Source of the DNA: a virus
Direction: 5' to 3' (one strand)
Virus genome (UHGV): UHGV-1736226
Length of the DNA: 13,328 bases
Below are positions 544 to 9,539 of the stretch, one piece after another; the stretch's first letter is position 1; every line of letters starts with the position of its first letter. A program made the translations under genes and the position numbers. Under the pieces are notes generated by a model. That model was not told where the DNA came from. It made no database searches and saw nothing but the letters and a program-made list of their open reading frames with translations.

Positions 544-2645
544 TGCTGAATCAGGAAACCGCAAAGGCAGCACGAACCGATTCAGGTTATATCCTTCGCG
601 CACCGAGACGAATGCGGGTTGCTGATGCCGTTGCTCAGTATATGCGGGTGCCCATGGGGGCCGGGAACTCAGTCCCGTGGGATCCGCTGGTGGCACCGTA
701 TGTTATTGAGCCGATGAACTGCCTGGCCTCGCGTGAATACGACGCAGTGATATTTGTTGGCCCGGCACGAACTGGCAAGACTATCGGCCTGATTGACGGC
801 TGGGTGATTTACAACGTGATTTGCGATCCTGCTGATATGCTGATCATTCAGATGACGGAGGAAAAAGCCCGCGAACACTCCAAAAAACGACTCGCCAGAA
901 CGTTTCGCGTCAGCCCGGAAGTGGTCAGTCGCCTGAGTCCGAACAAAAATGACAACAACGTTTATGACAGAACATTCCTTGCTGGCAACTACCTGAAAAT
1001 CGGCTGGCCGTCAGTCAATATCATGTCCTCATCAGATTATAAATGCGTGGCGCTGACGGATTATGACCGTTTTCCGGAAGATATTGATGGCGAGGGGGAT
1101 GCCTTCTCTCTTGCCTCAAAACGTACCACCACATTTATGTCCAGTGGTATGACGCTGGTGGAGAGTTCCCCCGGCAGGGATGTGAAGGATGTGAAATGGC
1201 GACGGACTTCACCGCATGAGGCTCCACCAACCACGGGGATACTGTCGCTCTATAACCGTGGCGATCGCCGTCGCTGGTACTGGCCCTGTCCACACTGTGG
1301 TGAGTATTTTCAGCCCTGCGGCGATGTGGTTGCTGGTTTCCGTGATATTGCCGATCCCGTGCTGGCAAGTGAGGCGGCTTATATTCAGTGTCCTTCCTGT
1401 TCAGGACGGATTATGCCTGAACAAAAACGTGAGCTGAACGGACGTGGGGTCTGGTTGCGGGATGGTGAATCCATCAATGCGGATGGCAGTCGTTATGGTG
1501 ATCCCCGACGCTCACGTATTGCGTCATTCTGGATGGAGGGTCCGGCAGCTGCTTACCAGACACTCTCGCAACTCGTTTACAAACTGCTTGCTGCAGAACA
1601 GGAATACGAGACAACCGGAAGTGAAGAAACACTCAAGACGGTTATCAATACCGACTGGGGATTACCTTATCTTCCCCGTGCCAGCATGGAGCAACGAAAA
1701 AGTGAACTGCTTGAGCAGCGGGCAGAGCCAGTTCCTTCCCGCAGTGTGCCGGATGGCGTTAATTTCCTGGTGGCGACAGTTGATGTGCAGGCGGGACGTC
1801 ATCGCCGTTTTGTGGTTCAGGTAACGGGCTATGGCAGCCGTGGCGAACGCTGGATTATTGATCGTTACAACATCACGCAGTCATTGCGCGGTGACAGCGA
1901 CGGGGAGAGCCAGCGAATTGATCCGGCCAGCTATCCGGAAGACTGGGATGTCCTGCTGACGGATGTTTTTCATAAAAGCTGGCCGCTGGCCTCCGATCCT
2001 TCTCAACAAATGCGACTGATGGCAATGGCGGTGGACTCCGGCGGTGAAGACGGAGTCACTGATAATGCCTATAAATTCTGGCGTCGTTGCCGTCGTGATG
2101 GCCTTGGTAAACGTATTTACCTGTTTAAGGGCGACAGCATCCGGCGCGCAAAACTGATCACCCGTACATTCCCTGATAACACCGGACGAACGGGCCGACG
2201 GGCGCAGGCCGCAGGTGATGTACCGCTCTGGCTTCTTCAGACGGATGCCCTGAAAGACCGGGTGAATAACGCGTTATGGCGTGACTCGCCAGGTCCCGGC
2301 TATGTGCATTTCCCTGACTGGCTGGGGAGCTGGTTTTACGACGAACTGACGTATGAAGAGCGGAGCAGTGACGGGAAATGGAGTAAGCCGGGTCGCGGTG
2401 CCAACGAAGCTTTTGACCTGATGGTGTATGCCGAGGCTCTGGTCATTCTGCATGGATACGAAAAGATCCGCTGGCCGGATGCACCGGAGTGGGCGAGCCG
2501 GGAAACCTGGCTGGAGTGTGTCCCGGACAGTACCGAACCGTCACCCACACCGGAACCGGTATCCACGCCTGTTAAAAAACAAAAACGGAAGAAAACAGTA
2601 ACTGACGATGTTAACCCCTGGCTGACTTCCGGAGGATGGTTATGA
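543..2645 (+). CDS. Phage terminase large subunit (lambda gpA family), ATPase + nuclease
   Basis: 700-aa ORF; Walker A-like motif VGPARTGKT at nt 759-782; size and position (after small terminase, before W/portal) as in lambda gpA; start overlaps the upstream stop (TAATG). Confidence 0.92.
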   Translation: MLNQETAKAARTDSGYILRAPRRMRVADAVAQYMRVPMGAGNSVPWDPLVAPYVIEPMNCLASREYDAVIFVGPARTGKTIGLIDGWVIYNVICDPADMLIIQMTEEKAREHSKKRLARTFRVSPEVVSRLSPNKNDNNVYDRTFLAGNYLKIGWPSVNIMSSSDYKCVALTDYDRFPEDIDGEGDAFSLASKRTTTFMSSGMTLVESSPGRDVKDVKWRRTSPHEAPPTTGILSLYNRGDRRRWYWPCPHCGEYFQPCGDVVAGFRDIADPVLASEAAYIQCPSCSGRIMPEQKRELNGRGVWLRDGESINADGSRYGDPRRSRIASFWMEGPAAAYQTLSQLVYKLLAAEQEYETTGSEETLKTVINTDWGLPYLPRASMEQRKSELLEQRAEPVPSRSVPDGVNFLVATVDVQAGRHRRFVVQVTGYGSRGERWIIDRYNITQSLRGDSDGESQRIDPASYPEDWDVLLTDVFHKSWPLASDPSQQMRLMAMAVDSGGEDGVTDNAYKFWRRCRRDGLGKRIYLFKGDSIRRAKLITRTFPDNTGRTGRRAQAAGDVPLWLLQTDALKDRVNNALWRDSPGPGYVHFPDWLGSWFYDELTYEERSSDGKWSKPGRGANEAFDLMVYAEALVILHGYEKIRWPDAPEWASRETWLECVPDSTEPSPTPEPVSTPVKKQKRKKTVTDDVNPWLTSGGWL

Positions 2646-2854
2646 ACCAGAATGATATCGAAGCCATGATTCAGCGTTATACGGAAGCTGAAATGGCGGT
2701 GCTGGACGGAAAATCCGTCACCTTTAATGGTCAGCAGATGACCATGGAAAACTTATCTGAGATCCGGCAGGGACGGCAGGAGTGGGAGCGCCGCCTTGCG
2801 GCTCTGATTACACGACGACGGGGGCATCCCGGGTACCGGCTGGCGAGGTTCTGA
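2642..2854 (+). CDS. W: Head-tail connector / head completion protein, lambda gpW-like
   Basis: About 70 aa; C-terminus RRRGHPGYRLARF resembles the lambda gpW C-terminus (RRRGPAGFYV); ATG at 2642 overlaps the terminase stop (ATGA) with GGAGG 6 nt upstream; an alternative in-frame ATG lies at 2636. Confidence 0.8.
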   Translation: MNQNDIEAMIQRYTEAEMAVLDGKSVTFNGQQMTMENLSEIRQGRQEWERRLAALITRRRGHPGYRLARF

Positions 2855-4362
2855 TGGCAATTCTTGATGATGTGATTGGCGTTTTTTCACCAGGATGGAA
2901 AGCGGCAAGGCTGCGTTCCCGTGCGGTGATCCAGGCTTATGAGGCCGTAAAAACGACGCGGACACACAAAGCCCGGCGGGAAAACCGAACTGCCGACCAG
3001 TTAAGCCAGTACGGGGCCGTGTCGTTACGTGAGCAGGCCCGTTACCTTGATAACAACCACGATCTGGTTATTGGTGTATTTGACAAGCTGGAAGAACGGG
3101 TGGTGGGGAAAAACGGGATTATTGTCGAGCCACATCCGGTATTACGCAATGGGGCCATTGCCCGTGATCTGGCAGCGGAGATACGCACCCGATGGAGTGA
3201 ATGGTCTGTCAGTCCGGAAGTCACCGGGCAGTTTACCCGTCCGATGCTGGAACGTCTGATGTTGCGTACCTGGCTGCGCGATGGTGAGGTGTTTGCCCAG
3301 ATGGTTTCCGGGCGCATAAACAGCCTGACGCCTTCTGCCGGTGTTCATTTCTGGCTGGAGGCGCTCGAGCCGGACTTTATTCCCATGACCAGTGATGAGA
3401 GCAACAGGCTGAATCAGGGCGTGTTTGTTGATGACTGGGGGCGTCCCGAAAAATATCTGGTGTATAAAAGCCGTCCCGTATCCGGACGGCAGATGGAAAC
3501 CAAAGAAGTGGATGCAGAGCGAATGCTGCATCTTAAATTTGTTCGCCGTCTGCACCAGATGCGCGGGACGTCTTTGTTGTCCGGTGTGCTGATCCGCCTC
3601 AGTGCCCTGAAAGAGTATGAAGATTCTGAGCTGACTGCAGCAAGGATCGCCGCTGCTCTGGGGATGTACATCCGCAAAGGCGACGGGCAGAGCTATGAAC
3701 CGGATGGTAATGGCAGCAAGGATAAGGAACGCGAGCTTACCATTCAGCCAGGCATTATTTACGACGATCTGAAACCCGGCGAAGAAATCGGAATGGTGAA
3801 GTCGGATCGTCCCAATCCTAACCTTGAAACTTTTCGTAATGGTCAGTTGCGTGCCGTGGCGGCGGGCAGTCGTCTGAGTTTTTCCAGTACAGCGCGCAAC
3901 TATAACGGCACTTACAGCGCCCAGCGTCAGGAGCTGGTTGAATCCACTGATGGCTACCTGATCCTGCAGGACTGGTTTATTGGTGCCGTCACCCGCCCGA
4001 TGTATCGTGCCTGGCTGAAACAGGCTGTGGCATCCGGTGTTATCAGGCTACCCCGCGATCTTGATCGTTCTTCACTGTATACCGCGGTGTATTCCGGACC
4101 GGTGATGCCGTGGATTGACCCTGTTAAGGAGGCTGAGGCCTGGAAAATTCAGATTCGTGGTGGAGCGGCGACAGAATCAGACTGGGTACGTGCAGGTGGT
4201 CGTAATCCAGATGATGTCAAACGTCGGCGCAAGGCCGAAATTGATGAAAACCGCAAGCTGGATCTGGTATTTGATACCGATCCGGCCAGTGATAAAGGAG
4301 GCAGCAGTGCCGCAACGAAACGACAGGAGCCGCAGCATACCGACGACCAGTCCGAAGAATAA
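2854..4362 (+). CDS. Phage portal protein (lambda gpB-type position)
   Basis: 502-aa ORF whose ATG at 2854 overlaps the gpW stop (TGATG); lies between W and the protease/capsid gene; size typical of lambda-family portals. The ORF-track extension back to 2782 overlaps W and is judged not translated. Confidence 0.8.
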   Translation: MAILDDVIGVFSPGWKAARLRSRAVIQAYEAVKTTRTHKARRENRTADQLSQYGAVSLREQARYLDNNHDLVIGVFDKLEERVVGKNGIIVEPHPVLRNGAIARDLAAEIRTRWSEWSVSPEVTGQFTRPMLERLMLRTWLRDGEVFAQMVSGRINSLTPSAGVHFWLEALEPDFIPMTSDESNRLNQGVFVDDWGRPEKYLVYKSRPVSGRQMETKEVDAERMLHLKFVRRLHQMRGTSLLSGVLIRLSALKEYEDSELTAARIAAALGMYIRKGDGQSYEPDGNGSKDKERELTIQPGIIYDDLKPGEEIGMVKSDRPNPNLETFRNGQLRAVAAGSRLSFSSTARNYNGTYSAQRQELVESTDGYLILQDWFIGAVTRPMYRAWLKQAVASGVIRLPRDLDRSSLYTAVYSGPVMPWIDPVKEAEAWKIQIRGGAATESDWVRAGGRNPDDVKRRRKAEIDENRKLDLVFDTDPASDKGGSSAATKRQEPQHTDDQSEE

Positions 4363-4375
4363 TTCCTGGTTCAGG

Positions 4376-6334
4376 ATGCAGGCAGGTCACCAGAGTGACG
4401 CGGATATTTATATTTATGACGAGATTGGTTTCTGGGGTGTTACGGCGAAGCAGTTTATCAGTGATCTGAATGCACTGGGCGATATCACCCACATTAATCT
4501 CCATATTAATTCACCGGGTGGCGATGTCTTTGAAGGCATCGCCATTTTTAATGCGCTGAAAACACATGGTGCGTCCATTACCGTTTATGTCGACGGTGTG
4601 GCGGCGTCAATGGCGTCGGTCATTGCGATGGTGGGAAACCCGGTCATTATGCCGGAAAACTCCTTCATGATGATTCATAAACCATTTGGCTTTACGGGCG
4701 GTGATGCGGAGGACATGCGCACCTATGCCGACCTGCTCGATAAGGTTGAGGCGGTTCTGTTACCCGCTTATGCACAGAAAACCGGGAAAACCACCGATGA
4801 AATTGCTGCCATGCTGGCGGATGAGACCTGGATGTCCGGTGCCGAATGTCTGGCACAGGGATTTGCTGATCAGGTGACACCAGCCGTTAAGGCAATGGCA
4901 TGTATTCAGTCAAAACGTACAGAGGAATTTAAAAAGATGCCGGAATCCATTCGAAATATGATTACTCCGCCACGCAACAGTGCTCCACGCGTACAGGATG
5001 ATGGACCTGCAGCCTCCCGGACGCCAGTGCAGGCAGCAGCACCCGTGGTGGATGAAAACAGCATCCGTGCGCAGGTCCTGGCAGAGCAAAAAGCGCGTGT
5101 AAACGGTATTAATGATCTGTTTGCCATGTTTGGCGGGCGTTATCAGTCGTTGCAGGCTCAGTGTCTTGCCGATCCTGAATGTTCGCTGGAGCAGGCCCGC
5201 GAAAAGCTGTTGAACGAGATGGGGCGCGAGTCCACGCCATCCAATAAAAATACCCCGGCTCATATTTATGCCGGTAACGGTAATTTTGTGGGGGACGGGA
5301 TCCGCCAGGCGCTGATGGCGCGCGCCGGGTTTGAAAAAACTGAACGTGATAATGTCTACAACGGGATGACCCTGCGTGAATATGCCCGTATGTCACTGAC
5401 TGAACGTGGTATTGGTGTTTCCAGTTATAACCCGATGCAGATGGTCGGTGCGGCGTTCACACACAGTACGTCTGACTTCGGTAATATTCTGCTGGATGTT
5501 GCGAACAAAGCCATTCTGCAGGGCTGGGAAGATGCCCCTGAAACCTATGAACAGTGGACGCGGAAAGGTCAGTTGTCTGATTTTAAAATTGCCCATCGTG
5601 TGGGTATGGGGGGCTTCAGTGCTCTGCGTCAGGTGCGTGAAGGGGCAGAATATAAATACGTCACCACCGGAGATAAACAGGCCACTATTGCACTGGCGAC
5701 CTATGGCGAGCTGTTCAGTATCACCCGTCAGGCCATTATCAATGATGATCTGAATATGCTGACCGATGTCCCGATGAAGCTGGGCCGTGCGGCGAAATCC
5801 ACTATTGCCGATCTGGTTTATGCCATTCTGACGTCTAACCCGAAAATCTCCACAGATAATGTAAGTCTGTTCGATAAAGCGAAACATGCAAACGTACTGG
5901 AGAGCGCTGCAATGGACGTGGCATCGCTGGATAAAGCCCGCCAGTTGATGCGCGTTCAGAAAGAGGGTGAGCGTCATCTGAATATTCGTCCTGCGTTCGT
6001 ACTGGTACCGACGGCGATGGAGTCTGTTGCTAACCAGGTCATTCGCTCCTCAAGTGTCAAGGGGGCTGACATTAACGCCGGTATTATTAACCCGGTGAAA
6101 GATTTTGCGACCGTTATTGCAGAGCCTCGTCTTGATGATAACAGCCAGACCACCTTCTACCTGGCTGCGTCCAAAGGCTCCGATACGATTGAAGTGGCTT
6201 ATCTCAACGGTGTGGATACGCCATATATTGATCAGATGGAGGGCTTCAGTGTGGATGGCGTGACAACGAAAGTGCGTATTGACGCCGGTGTCGCGCCAGT
6301 TGATCACCGCGGTCTGGTGAAATGTACGGCGTAA
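4376..6334 (+). CDS. Tripartite capsid polyprotein: N-terminal ClpP-like prohead protease, central scaffold-like region, C-terminal major capsid protein
   Basis: 652 aa from the ATG at 4376, 13 nt after the portal stop. N-terminal ~180 aa align to the ClpP core (VDGVAASMASVIAMVG with Ser codon at 4607-4609; MMIHKP His motif). The C-terminal ~370 aa are assigned as major capsid by size and position. The arrangement matches the published Gifsy-2 tripartite capsid gene. The ORF-track start at 4115 overlaps the portal and is rejected. Confidence 0.85.
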   Translation: MQAGHQSDADIYIYDEIGFWGVTAKQFISDLNALGDITHINLHINSPGGDVFEGIAIFNALKTHGASITVYVDGVAASMASVIAMVGNPVIMPENSFMMIHKPFGFTGGDAEDMRTYADLLDKVEAVLLPAYAQKTGKTTDEIAAMLADETWMSGAECLAQGFADQVTPAVKAMACIQSKRTEEFKKMPESIRNMITPPRNSAPRVQDDGPAASRTPVQAAAPVVDENSIRAQVLAEQKARVNGINDLFAMFGGRYQSLQAQCLADPECSLEQAREKLLNEMGRESTPSNKNTPAHIYAGNGNFVGDGIRQALMARAGFEKTERDNVYNGMTLREYARMSLTERGIGVSSYNPMQMVGAAFTHSTSDFGNILLDVANKAILQGWEDAPETYEQWTRKGQLSDFKIAHRVGMGGFSALRQVREGAEYKYVTTGDKQATIALATYGELFSITRQAIINDDLNMLTDVPMKLGRAAKSTIADLVYAILTSNPKISTDNVSLFDKAKHANVLESAAMDVASLDKARQLMRVQKEGERHLNIRPAFVLVPTAMESVANQVIRSSSVKGADINAGIINPVKDFATVIAEPRLDDNSQTTFYLAASKGSDTIEVAYLNGVDTPYIDQMEGFSVDGVTTKVRIDAGVAPVDHRGLVKCTA

Positions 6335-6354: not shown

Positions 6355-6378
6355 GATGGCCCGTAAGGGCTTTTTTTG
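6355..6378 (+). terminator. Putative rho-independent terminator/attenuator downstream of the capsid gene
   Basis: Short GC stem (GGCCC-GTAA-GGGC) followed by a T7 run at 6371-6377, 20 nt after the capsid stop. Confidence 0.4.
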
Positions 6379-6388
6379 TACCTGAAAT

Positions 6389-6420: not shown

Positions 6421-6744
6421 ATGGCAAAGAATTTTGTAGAAGAAGGAAAAACGGTGGCGATTGTTGCCAGTGCAGCCATCAGCAGCGGAGATCTGGTGCA
6501 GGTGGGGGATGTTTTTGCGGTGGCGCTGACCGATATTCCACAGGGAGAAACAGGCGACGGCATGACCGAAGGTGTGTTTATGCTGCCTAAGCTGAAAACG
6601 GATGACATGAAAACGGGTAAGAAGGTTTATCTGAAGTCCGGAAAAGTTCAGCTGACTAACAGCGGCTCTGAGCCGCTGGTCGGGGTTGTCTGGGCAGATG
6701 CCGGAACCAGTGCAGAAGAAGTGCCGGTAAAACTCAATGTCTGA
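6421..6744 (+). CDS. Small capsid accessory protein, putative head decoration protein (DUF2190-like)
   Basis: 107 aa; strong RBS (GGAG, 7-nt spacing); lies immediately after the major capsid gene where decoration proteins sit in lambda/Gifsy-type modules; Gly/Val-rich, beta-rich composition. Functional call is by position plus recalled family resemblance. Confidence 0.55.
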   Translation: MAKNFVEEGKTVAIVASAAISSGDLVQVGDVFAVALTDIPQGETGDGMTEGVFMLPKLKTDDMKTGKKVYLKSGKVQLTNSGSEPLVGVVWADAGTSAEEVPVKLNV

Positions 6745-7012
6745 TCCCTTTTCCCGGCTGGCAGCGCGTATGGATGCGATCACGGTCAGAAAGATGGGAA
6801 AGACAGCCTCGATTAATGATGTCGATATGACTGTGATCCCGGGAGAAACACTGGCAGAGCTGAATGCTCTGTCCGGACCTGCGGTCTCTCTGGTGGTGTT
6901 TTCTTCGGGATACCGCCCACGGCGCGGGGATCGCGTTGTTTATGACGGACAACAATGGACGGTCACACGGCATGAACGTTTTAACGGTAAGCCAATGATC
7001 TTTATTGAGTAA
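6737..7012 (+). CDS. Head-tail joining protein, lambda gpFII-like
   Basis: 91 aa; start overlaps the upstream stop (ATGTCTGA); recalled similarity to lambda FII (FSRLAARMDAITVRKMG vs FDAAIARADETIRGYMG; RRGDRVVYDGQQWTV vs RRGDTLTIGEENFWV). Confidence 0.6.
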   Translation: MSDPFSRLAARMDAITVRKMGKTASINDVDMTVIPGETLAELNALSGPAVSLVVFSSGYRPRRGDRVVYDGQQWTVTRHERFNGKPMIFIE

Positions 7013-8754: not shown

Positions 8755-8774
8755 CAGGACGATACTCATCATTT

Positions 8775-8798
8775 GCCCCGGTTATCCGGGGCTTTTTT
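8775..8798 (+). terminator. Putative rho-independent terminator/attenuator after the major tail gene
   Basis: GCCCCGG-TTAT-CCGGGGC stem-loop followed by TTTTTT, 20 nt after the V stop. Confidence 0.55.
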
Positions 8799-8811
8799 GC
8801 AGGTGGAGAAC

Positions 8812-9201
8812 ATGATGTTTCTGAAACAGGGCACGTTTAATTATGAAAAACAGTCCGTGGTGCTCAGTGAGCTGTCCGGGCTGCAGAGAATTGAATATCT
8901 GGCGTTTGTTCAGCAGCGAACGGCAAAGTTTGATGCCGGGGAGGGAGAACTGCCGGAGGCTGAACGACAGATTGCTTTTCTGCGGATGGGGATGGATATC
9001 AATGCCTGGCTGGTTTCCCGCTCACTGTGGAATGCGGATCAGTCTAAGGATGTAGAGACGCTTTGCGCATCCGTTATTACAACATGGTCGTATGATGCCC
9101 TGGGTGCGGGGGCGGAGATGGTTCTGTCGCTGAGCGGTATGGGGGCCATTGATAATGCCGGGGATGATGAGCATGAGGCGCTGACGCCGGAAAAGTCCTG
9201 A
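8812..9201 (+). CDS. G: Tail assembly chaperone, lambda gpG homolog
   Basis: About 129 aa; matches lambda G (MFLK start, VVLSELSGLQRIEYLAF vs VTLSELSALQRIEHLAL, SLW, VLSLSGM vs VLRLSGM); GGTGGAG RBS. Start could be ATG 8812 or 8815. Confidence 0.85.
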   Translation: MMFLKQGTFNYEKQSVVLSELSGLQRIEYLAFVQQRTAKFDAGEGELPEAERQIAFLRMGMDINAWLVSRSLWNADQSKDVETLCASVITTWSYDALGAGAEMVLSLSGMGAIDNAGDDEHEALTPEKS

Positions 9202-9539
9202 CGCGGGAAATGCAGTTTGTCATGCGGCTTGCCCGGGAGTTCCGGCGGGCAGACTGGCGGCGGATGCTGTCGGAAATGTCGGCCACTGAGCTTGGTGAGT
9301 GGGGCGATTATTTCCGGATGCAGAGCTTCAGTGATGTGTGGATGGATGCGCAGTTTGCCTCGCTGAAGGCATTGATCGTGAGAATGGTGTCCGGCAGCAG
9401 TGATGCTGCGGTGGCTGATTTCAGCCTTTTACCGGAAGAGAACGGGATACCGGAGCGAACGGACGAAGAACTGATGCATCTTGGGGAAGGTATTTCCGGA
9501 GGTGTGCGTTATGGACCAGATAGCCAACCTGGTCATTGA
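8812..9539 (+). CDS. Tail assembly chaperone G-T fusion made by programmed -1 ribosomal frameshift near 9189-9195
   Basis: The -1 frame relative to G is open from 9171 to the TGA at 9537-9539 and has no credible RBS of its own. A slippery-like heptamer G GAA AAG sits at 9189-9195 just before the G stop. The G then T arrangement directly upstream of the tape measure is conserved in lambda-type tails. Confidence 0.65.
9189..9195 (+). other. Candidate -1 frameshift slippery heptamer G GAA AAG for G-T synthesis
   Basis: Heptamer in the G frame (codons GAA-AAG at 9190-9195). A -1 shift gives A-site AAA (Lys) and P-site GGA (G-C, G-U, A-U pairing with tRNA-Glu); the -1 frame is open from 9171. Confidence 0.5.

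Follow-up and report, generated by a model that had tools for sequence, protein, structure and literature searches.

One gene of the virus genome UHGV-1736226, located in a stretch of 13,328 nucleotides (nt) hereafter called the window, encodes a ClpP-like prohead protease, a helical scaffold-like module and an HK97-fold major capsid protein in a single open reading frame (ORF). This gene, which by its sequence belongs to the Gifsy-2 type of head-assembly genes, on balance appears to give two nested products, a full-length fusion initiated at GTG 4307 and a protease-free scaffold–capsid protein initiated at the in-frame ATG 4937-4939, which sits just past the ClpP fold. The internal start is held with reasonable confidence to be real; that it is both real and unreported is a more doubtful proposition. 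Residues are numbered either in the 652-amino-acid (aa) ORF first delimited from 4376 or in the 675-aa protein read from GTG 4307, the offset between both being 23.

In the clade of the window, the internal ATG is kept in 26/26 orthologs with 56-72% nucleotide identity to the window, and the codons at positions -5 and -4 always read xAG GAx. Both the ATG and the AGGA core of the preceding Shine-Dalgarno (SD)-like motif are also retained in 21 further loci down to 53% identity, giving a total of 47/47. This core persists across the amino acid contexts EE, ED, KD, QD, QE, and GD. Indeed, two of the further loci encode Gly-Asp (ACA GGA GAT), yet AGGAG is still spelled. Among the 15 columns exclusively occupied by Glu, Lys, or Gln, only the first codon of the SD motif has an invariant third base (G, 26/26). 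The synonymous diversity of the 10-codon window starting at residue 198 is 0.39 vs a gene mean of 0.71, the lowest value of the gene (rank 1/571), and the windows starting at residues 199-203 occupy ranks 3-7. Eleven ATG columns are conserved, of which 4937 is the only one preceded by an SD-like motif in 26/26 sequences, the others being so in 0-4. The mRNA is least structured at the same place, as the 50-nt windows centered on codons 205-220 account for the top 15/655 positions (mean of 19 orthologs). A candidate -1 frameshift at TTT AAA AAG (4928-4936) was rejected, its heptamer not being conserved among orthologs.

The family-wide comparison covers 36 representatives (<75% identity) reduced from all pooled loci, with the interdomain region defined as the alignment columns of window residues 192-250 and 1659 equal-length windows from the same genes serving as controls. 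Met188 does not hold as a single fixed-column start in this wider family, since V, A, P, I, T, or L are found in its column in distant relatives and locus L203 has a GTG there without an SD. As these residues are tolerated, Met is not needed at this position at the protein level. Distant clades display an SD-preceded in-frame ATG 20-30 residues further 3', still before the helical module, the SD frequently being of the canonical kind, such as AAGGAGG-N5-ATG with a free energy (dG) of -12.2 (L207), another with a dG of -11.6 (L208), and AAGGAG-N6-ATG with a dG of -8.7. Taken together, the interdomain region of 36/36 representatives contains an SD-like motif followed by a start codon in frame (ATG in 35, GTG in 1). 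A dG <=-5.4 is reached by 34/36 of them vs 30% of the control windows, and a dG <=-8 by 25% vs 4.3%. The SD-preceded start is also specific to the reading frame, being found in frame in 34/36 representatives vs 4/36 and 0/36 for the other frames. At these starts, the mRNA structure has a mean z of +1.67, with z >1 in 89% of the cases and a median rank within the 4% least structured positions per gene. Depending on the clade, the putative internal start occupies one of at least two positions, and it is found again in a sister family endowed with a different protease, in which Stenotrophomonas phage S1 carries AGGAG-N6-ATG at the homologous 'H-T-M-P'.

The plainest reading of the gene structure is that of a single polyprotein, in which every subunit is full-length, ~415 proteases are packed per procapsid, and all of them are trimmed autoproteolytically. 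The frame is uninterrupted in hundreds of genes, and this reading matches the description of Gifsy-2 in a passage of PMC12315714, where the protease and coat genes are fused. The internal ATG and its SD would then be a non-functional remnant of a former boundary between genes, or would merely accompany conservation at the protein level. Several observations go in this direction and weigh against a second product. The SD of the window clade is only moderate (dG ~-6, ~5th-7th percentile of gene positions), with a longish gap of 10 nt. The internal Met is embedded in a motif conserved at the protein level (F-x-x-x-P), so its conservation may partly reflect protein function, and the low mRNA structure is partly due to the A/T-rich Lys, Glu, and Phe codons of the stretch. 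The nominal p-values of the family-wide comparison (3e-5 and 2.6e-13) overstate independence because the 36 representatives are related. Besides, no report of two products from a Gifsy-2-type gene was found in the searchable literature, out of the reach of which stands the paper of Effantin et al. 2010, which may discuss or exclude an internal start. However, a relic would not be expected to survive over a range of 36-100% identity where the protein varies most, nor to shift its position yet hold both frame and SD. A single polyprotein also leaves unaccounted for the strongest synonymous constraint and the least structured mRNA of the gene, and the internal Met is dispensable in the wider family. 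This reading is regarded as rather unlikely.

The SD-like sequence could also act without initiation, as a translational pause or co-translational folding signal exerted through the anti-SD after the protease, or as another RNA element. Its location exactly at the domain boundary would suit such a role, as would the synonymous constraint, which reaches ~13 codons upstream, beyond the needs of an SD. However, an ATG (GTG once) in frame 5-10 nt downstream is not needed for a pause, yet it is present in every representative and is frame-specific, and the region is unusually unstructured, not structured. A signal of this kind is deemed very improbable.

If both starts are used, the full-length 73-kDa form from GTG 4307 would act as a capsid subunit that has the protease built in and takes it into the shell, and the 51-kDa protease-free scaffold–capsid form (residues 211-675) from ATG 4937 would be the bulk building block. 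As both forms would carry the same capsid domain, they could co-assemble, and the protease, tethered by the Pro/Ala spacer, would enter the procapsid attached to a subunit. The homology with Gifsy-2 suggests that the capsid part polymerizes into a T=7 procapsid enclosing the N-terminal parts. After assembly, the protease would cleave the scaffold parts, probably at 227-244 and/or 308-326 (675-aa numbering), and would then degrade itself. Expansion of the shell and binding of the cement protein (gene at 6421-6744) would follow. By analogy with Gifsy-2, it can reasonably be inferred that the capsid domain is released by autoproteolysis. Such a gene might have arisen when protease genes were joined, in frame, to a delta–capsid gene whose own ribosome-binding site was retained. 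Extending this scheme to the whole family is tentative: the internal start may give the main shell subunit in all members, with a full-length minority subunit delivering the protease via its own capsid domain.

The ORF at 4376-6334 on the + strand, claimed to be free of internal stops in a previous examination based on the DNA letters and their translations (the sequence-only reading), does translate to 652 stop-free codons. Its start at ATG 4376 is not retained, as comparison supports GTG 4307 as the true start of the fusion gene instead, leading to a protein of 675 aa. The frame is open upstream from 4115, and a start equivalent to 4307, GTG or ATG with AAGGAG upstream, is found in 24/26 orthologs, GTG being the codon in 20/26. 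ATG 4376 is not conserved, as five orthologs, Gifsy-2 among them, have ATC, CTG, ATT, or CTT instead, and protein-level conservation extends to the residues preceding it (N-S-W-F/Y). The RefSeq/PGAP start of the fusion gene is also 4307. With this start, the first 56 nt of the gene overlap the end of the portal gene.

The N-terminal part had been described as ClpP-like, with the lack of a ClpP match named as the result that would speak against it. A match is present, as Pfam CLP_protease aligns with residues 23-168 (4.6e-36). The family model NF045542 'head maturation protease, ClpP-related' gives 217 bits vs a cutoff of 120. In the AlphaFold model of the full protein (98-sequence alignment, mean predicted local distance difference test (pLDDT) of 88), the protease domain has a pLDDT >90, and the model of the N-terminal domain aligns with solved ClpP structures by Foldseek with a target-normalized TM-score of ~0.8 and a root-mean-square deviation (rmsd) of ~2-3 Å. 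The Ser of AASMA (Ser78, TCA) and the His of MMIHKP (His101) proposed beforehand stand where expected, both aligning with the ClpP catalytic residues. The third triad position, Asp in ClpP, is mostly occupied by Glu across 93 relatives (Glu 81, Asp 8, acidic in 89/93). The cellular ClpP equivalog TIGR00493 reaches 60 bits, below its cutoff of 308.6, and no other ClpP equivalog or subfamily model comes near its cutoff. Among the S49 families (lambda gpC, SppA-like), none is significant, with 21.8 bits vs a cutoff of 155 for the SppA-type TIGR00706. The predicted protease is ClpP-related by fold and is not a cellular ClpP. In three loci from Enterobacter vonholyi, Kluyvera, and Rahnella (L029, L030, and L032), with open frames of 583-614 aa, the match to the window protein begins only at residue 104-121, and their protease may have a different or shortened N-terminal half.

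The region between protease and capsid had been read as a low-complexity linker of ~150-200 aa. Low entropy is found at ~196-225 (652-aa numbering) only, and the remainder is mostly a structured helical module. Likewise, the AlphaFold check proposed for this linker reveals disorder solely at residues 204-221 (652-aa numbering), and residues 227-284 are modeled as a confident three-helix module. The truly disordered Pro/Ala spacer is thereby only ~20-30 residues long. It is preceded by two short helices at 203-219 (675-aa numbering), located between the protease fold and the spacer, and beyond it helices continue over 327-409 (675-aa numbering), up to the beta-rich capsid fold. Across the 93 relatives, conservation is lowest and indels most frequent at 178-237, conservation being moderate at 238-357 and high in the capsid core (652-aa numbering). 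The D-L-S-x-F/Y-x-N-x-P motif found just past the protease fold has its Pro in 85/93 relatives and an aromatic residue in 80/93, and it might mediate docking or be cleaved.

Searched alone, the middle segment matches no significant Pfam family (best E 0.038), and its matches in PHROG are solely to the fusion families themselves. Against predicted viral structures (BFVD), the model aligns over 390-516 columns, at high rmsd, with HK97-family capsid precursors of 400-480 aa, which bear N-terminal helical extensions (delta). The helical module may be a delta-domain-like scaffold. The ~290-column Foldseek matches to HK97-fold shells do not include the helices at 327-376. In the sister family NF045541, the middle and capsid parts are homologous to those of the window protein (model positions ~198-649), and the N-terminal module is unrelated. 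Middle and capsid parts therefore make up a conserved unit, to which exchangeable N-terminal modules are attached.

The proposed C-terminal HK97-fold capsid domain is recovered by Pfam Phage_capsid_4 at 354-649 (652-aa numbering, 6e-55). In the AlphaFold model of the full protein, its fold is beta-rich with a long spine helix at 483-510 (675-aa numbering). A second AlphaFold model, limited to residues 245-675, has a pLDDT of 92, and Foldseek gives it a probability of 1.00 to HK97-fold shells, which include encapsulins and phage capsids such as HK97 Head II (2ft1) and phage D3, and matches to viral capsid proteins are also obtained in BFVD. All these shells share <=14% identity with the capsid domain of the window, which means that no close relative has an atomic structure.

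The Gifsy-2-type assignment made in the sequence-only reading is borne out by 70% identity and 84% similarity to the Gifsy-2 protein from end to end, both proteins being members of NCBIfam NF045540 'ClpP-like prohead protease/major capsid protein fusion protein'. The window protein reaches 984 bits vs a cutoff of 475 over model positions 2-651/652, and PHROG 133 also covers its full length. Besides the score, membership is consistent with the predicted ClpP fold and its catalytic residues, with the HK97 capsid in the same frame, and with the head-module context, the gene order portal, fusion, and cement being also that of Gifsy-2 and distant relatives. The fusion gene is already known, as databases contain a protein identical to that of the window, its family has been curated, and one of its orthologs is characterized. 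The arrangement cannot be called rare, as it had been, since 2002/5426 complete Escherichia coli genomes (37%) carry the fusion, under the NF045540 name in RefSeq. Among the 50%-identity cluster representatives, 6843 are below 1e-30, and full-length alignments with 36-54% identity are obtained for >100 of the 150 best ones. A viral-contig search with the distant protein P0190 returned almost exclusively partial matches, mostly protease-only, and the alignment-anchored scans led mostly to the same enterobacterial contigs, with ~18 new divergent contigs among the matches listed. Several actinobacteriophage clusters also have analogous protease–scaffold–capsid fusions (PMC7302621).

An artificial fusion, due to a sequencing or assembly error that removed a stop or a frameshift between a protease and a capsid gene, had been named as a weak point of this assignment. 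Nothing direct speaks for it, the only related facts being isolated chimeric or frameshifted database entries (L004 and the portal-fusion chimeras P0033 and P0034). Population data refute it, as the same uninterrupted gene is found in 28 phage records and in the 2002 complete E. coli genomes. The fusion is also uninterrupted in 32/33 long loci from different species, 342 intact genes were pooled from all fetched loci, the homology with Gifsy-2 is continuous over all junctions, and the split of L004 is itself a frameshift. The fusion is genuine, and an error as its source is given practically no chance.

The sole long locus with an internal stop in the fusion gene is that of Pseudomonas sp. A-RE-19 (L039). 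P0165/L004 (L004:2411-4386, GCA_000755365.1), considered as a natural split between protease and scaffold–capsid, was rejected, being a frameshift inside a contiguous fusion that lies in the remnant of a rearranged prophage. The second ORF was called there precisely from the Met that corresponds to ATG 4937 of the window. P0224/L005 was likewise rejected as a protease-less relative, its contig of 1.5 kb containing no upstream sequence. Six proteins of 800-1135 aa (P0033, P0034, P0063, P0006, P0068, and P0061) join the fusion to Pfam domains of portal, terminase, or tail proteins. Frameshifts or assembly errors probably account for these chimeras, the formation of which would be eased by the overlap of the portal and fusion genes. 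Annotation is inconsistent across records, with names such as 'head maturation protease', 'Major head protein', 'head-tail preconnector protein Nu3', and 'putative protease'. The mEp460 RefSeq record contains no gene named major capsid protein and starts the coding sequence at the equivalent of 4376.

The closest characterized system is the Gifsy-2 gene (STM1034.3n.Gifsy2, NC_010393; L002:22471-24558), which scores 950 bits (949.6) on NF045540 vs 984 for the window. By segment, the two proteins are closest in the capsid core (87% identity), followed by the protease (63%) and the helical module (51%), and they differ most in the spacer (18%). Both share the order small terminase, large terminase, small protein, lambda-type portal, fusion gene, cement protein, and tail genes, and the same internal ATG with GAGGAG is present in Gifsy-2. 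The differences are the host (Salmonella vs E. coli), indels in the 285-303 loop (652-aa numbering), and the longer annotated N-terminus of Gifsy-2 (696 aa); nothing functional sets the two apart. The capsid of Gifsy-2 was reportedly modeled by Effantin et al. in 2010 with the HK97 capsid protein and lambda gpD, and its proteolytic maturation to a capsid-only subunit is said to be described in the same study. A T=7 capsid with a trimeric decoration protein is mentioned for this phage in passages of PMC8814770 and PMC8538268.

Nested protease/scaffold genes are known from lambda C/Nu3, herpes simplex virus 1 (HSV-1) UL26/UL26.5, and HFTV1 gp17/gp17.5 (bioRxiv 10.64898/2026.09.13.751334). In these three systems, an in-frame internal start leads to a protease-free assembly protein sharing the C-terminus of the protease, as would be the case for the window gene. 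The window also has a lambdoid context, with a lambda-type portal and terminase. In contrast to lambda C/Nu3/E, its protease is ClpP-like and not SppA-like, and the capsid protein is fused on within the same gene. The window gene may work like C/Nu3; it is not a C/Nu3 family member by descent. As for HK97 gp5, the proposed 465-aa product is predicted to consist of an N-terminal helical module followed by an HK97 fold. The HK97 protease (gp4), however, is encoded by a separate gene and belongs to another fold family, whereas that of the window lies upstream in the same frame. The capsid of the window is of the Phage_capsid_4 / Mu-gpT-like type and not of the HK97 Phage_capsid family, and the window has a cement gene. 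The production of two nested forms would combine the nesting of lambda C/Nu3 with the delta-fusion logic of HK97.

The sister family NF045541 'prohead protease/major capsid protein fusion protein', represented by gp8 of Stenotrophomonas phage S1 (621 bits vs a cutoff of 525), has a homologous middle module and capsid and a decoration gene downstream. It differs by its ~190-aa N-terminal module, which is unrelated to that of the window and has no Pfam match, and the window protein itself gives 399 bits on this model, below the cutoff of 525. The actinobacteriophage fusions of Microbacterium cluster EE, Arthrobacter clusters AN, AX, and FE, and Gordonia clusters CW and DM (PMC7302621), compared here by function alone, gather the same three functions in one gene and differ by their hosts and small genomes. 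They probably arose independently.

Taken alone, the fusion gene is the re-identification of a known, curated, and very common prophage gene and changes nothing. It has value for annotation, as in many phage records the major capsid protein is missing and the gene start is placed 23 codons too late. Only the internal-start lead might be new. If it is true, the protease of a widespread head-assembly module would be dosed by translational nesting and not be present on every subunit, which would explain how its dose is controlled in a gene that seemingly forces a 1:1 ratio. It would also offer a simple evolutionary route, in which proteases were fused onto an HK97-style delta–capsid gene retaining its own start, and would add a bacterial case of nesting that extends through the capsid protein itself. 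The features discussed above and their neighbors are collected in the following table.

Table. Coordinates of the fusion gene, its predicted domains and signals, and the adjacent genes in the window (residues in 675-aa numbering unless stated; paired residue names give the 652-aa and then the 675-aa number)
Feature	Position	Strand	Basis or remark
Lambda-type portal gene	2854..4362	+	Pfam Phage_portal_2 5.7e-82, plus annotation; 3'-terminal 56 nt shared with the fusion gene
Shine-Dalgarno AAGGAGG of the full-length gene	4295..4301	+	5 nt before GTG 4307; inside the 3' end of the portal gene
Full-length fusion gene, ClpP-like protease + helical scaffold-like module + HK97-fold major capsid protein	4307..6334	+	675 aa, 73.4 kDa
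ClpP-like (S14-type) prohead protease domain, residues 23-191	4373..4879	+	Pfam, NF045542, AlphaFold, Foldseek
Gly-Gly of the SPGG motif (oxyanion-hole region in ClpP)	4517..4522	+	G48 and G49 in 93/93 aligned relatives
Putative catalytic Ser codon (Ser78 / Ser101)	4607..4609	+	Aligns with the ClpP catalytic Ser; invariant in 93/93 relatives
Putative catalytic His codon (His101 / His124)	4676..4678	+	Aligned to ClpP; invariant in 93/93 relatives
Glu150 / Glu173, position of the third ClpP triad residue (Asp)	4823..4825	+	Aligned to the Asp of 'RDNWMS' in ClpP 1y7o
Zone of lowest synonymous diversity, directly 5' of the internal ATG	4898..4936	+	Synonymous-diversity scan
SD-like GAGGA (AGGA core), 10 nt before ATG 4937	4922..4926	+	AGGA core in 47/47 gamma-proteobacterial orthologs examined
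Conserved peptide motif F-x-x-(M)-P just past the protease fold, residues 208-212	4928..4942	+	Family consensus D-L-S-x-F/Y-x-N-x-P
Proposed nested product from ATG 4937 (Met188 / Met211), scaffold-like module + capsid, protease-free	4937..6334	+	465 aa, 50.6 kDa
Disordered, hypervariable Pro/Ala-rich spacer, residues 227-244	4985..5038	+	pLDDT <50; least conservation and most indels (93-sequence alignment)
Predicted three-helix module, scaffold/delta-domain-like, residues 250-307	5054..5227	+	Helices 250-273, 280-288, and 294-307; pLDDT ~89-98
Flexible loop, residues 308-326, candidate maturation cleavage region (inferred only)	5228..5284	+	pLDDT 53-73; indels vs Gifsy-2
Further helices, residues 327-376, N-arm extension or scaffold part	5285..5434	+	Helices 327-339 and 356-366; conservation 0.41-0.46
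HK97-fold major capsid protein core, residues 354-649 (652-aa numbering)	5435..6322	+	Phage_capsid_4 6e-55, Mu-like_gpT 3.7e-08
Terminator-like hairpin + T-run just 3' of the fusion gene	6358..6381	+	Rho-independent terminator in the mEp460 annotation
Cement/decoration protein gene, partner of the fusion capsid protein	6421..6744	+	Pfam Phage_cement_2 8.9e-21

The window corresponds to the left arm of a lambdoid phage, carrying the DNA packaging, head, and tail genes, and this phage is essentially mEp460. Indeed, the 1959-base query has 99.5-99.7% nucleotide identity with mEp460 records, and the fusion protein is 100% identical to that of mEp460_ev081. The genes follow the order small terminase (DUF1441), gpA-type large terminase, a 72-aa protein, lambda-type portal, and fusion gene, and continue with the cement protein (Phage_cement_2), a PF13856 protein, gpZ, gpU, the major tail protein, the G/T chaperones, and the tape measure.

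The PF13856 protein (91 aa, window 6737-7012) matches a Pfam family named 'Gifsy-2' and described as 'ATP-binding sugar transporter from pro-phage', an odd description for a protein placed among head–tail joining genes, and its record names conflict ('minor tail protein' vs 'DNA breaking-rejoining protein'). The two tail-chaperone ORFs (8773-9201 and 9210-9539) do not have the lambda-type G/T slippery heptamer GGGAAAG at their junction (window 9150-9230), so any frameshift site there must be a different one. Two Chi sites (GCTGGTGG) lie within the large terminase gene, at window 686-693 and 1154-1161, a number not above chance as at least two are obtained in 26/200 shuffles. The hairpin at 6358-6381, between the capsid and cement genes, could reduce the expression of the downstream genes relative to the capsid gene.

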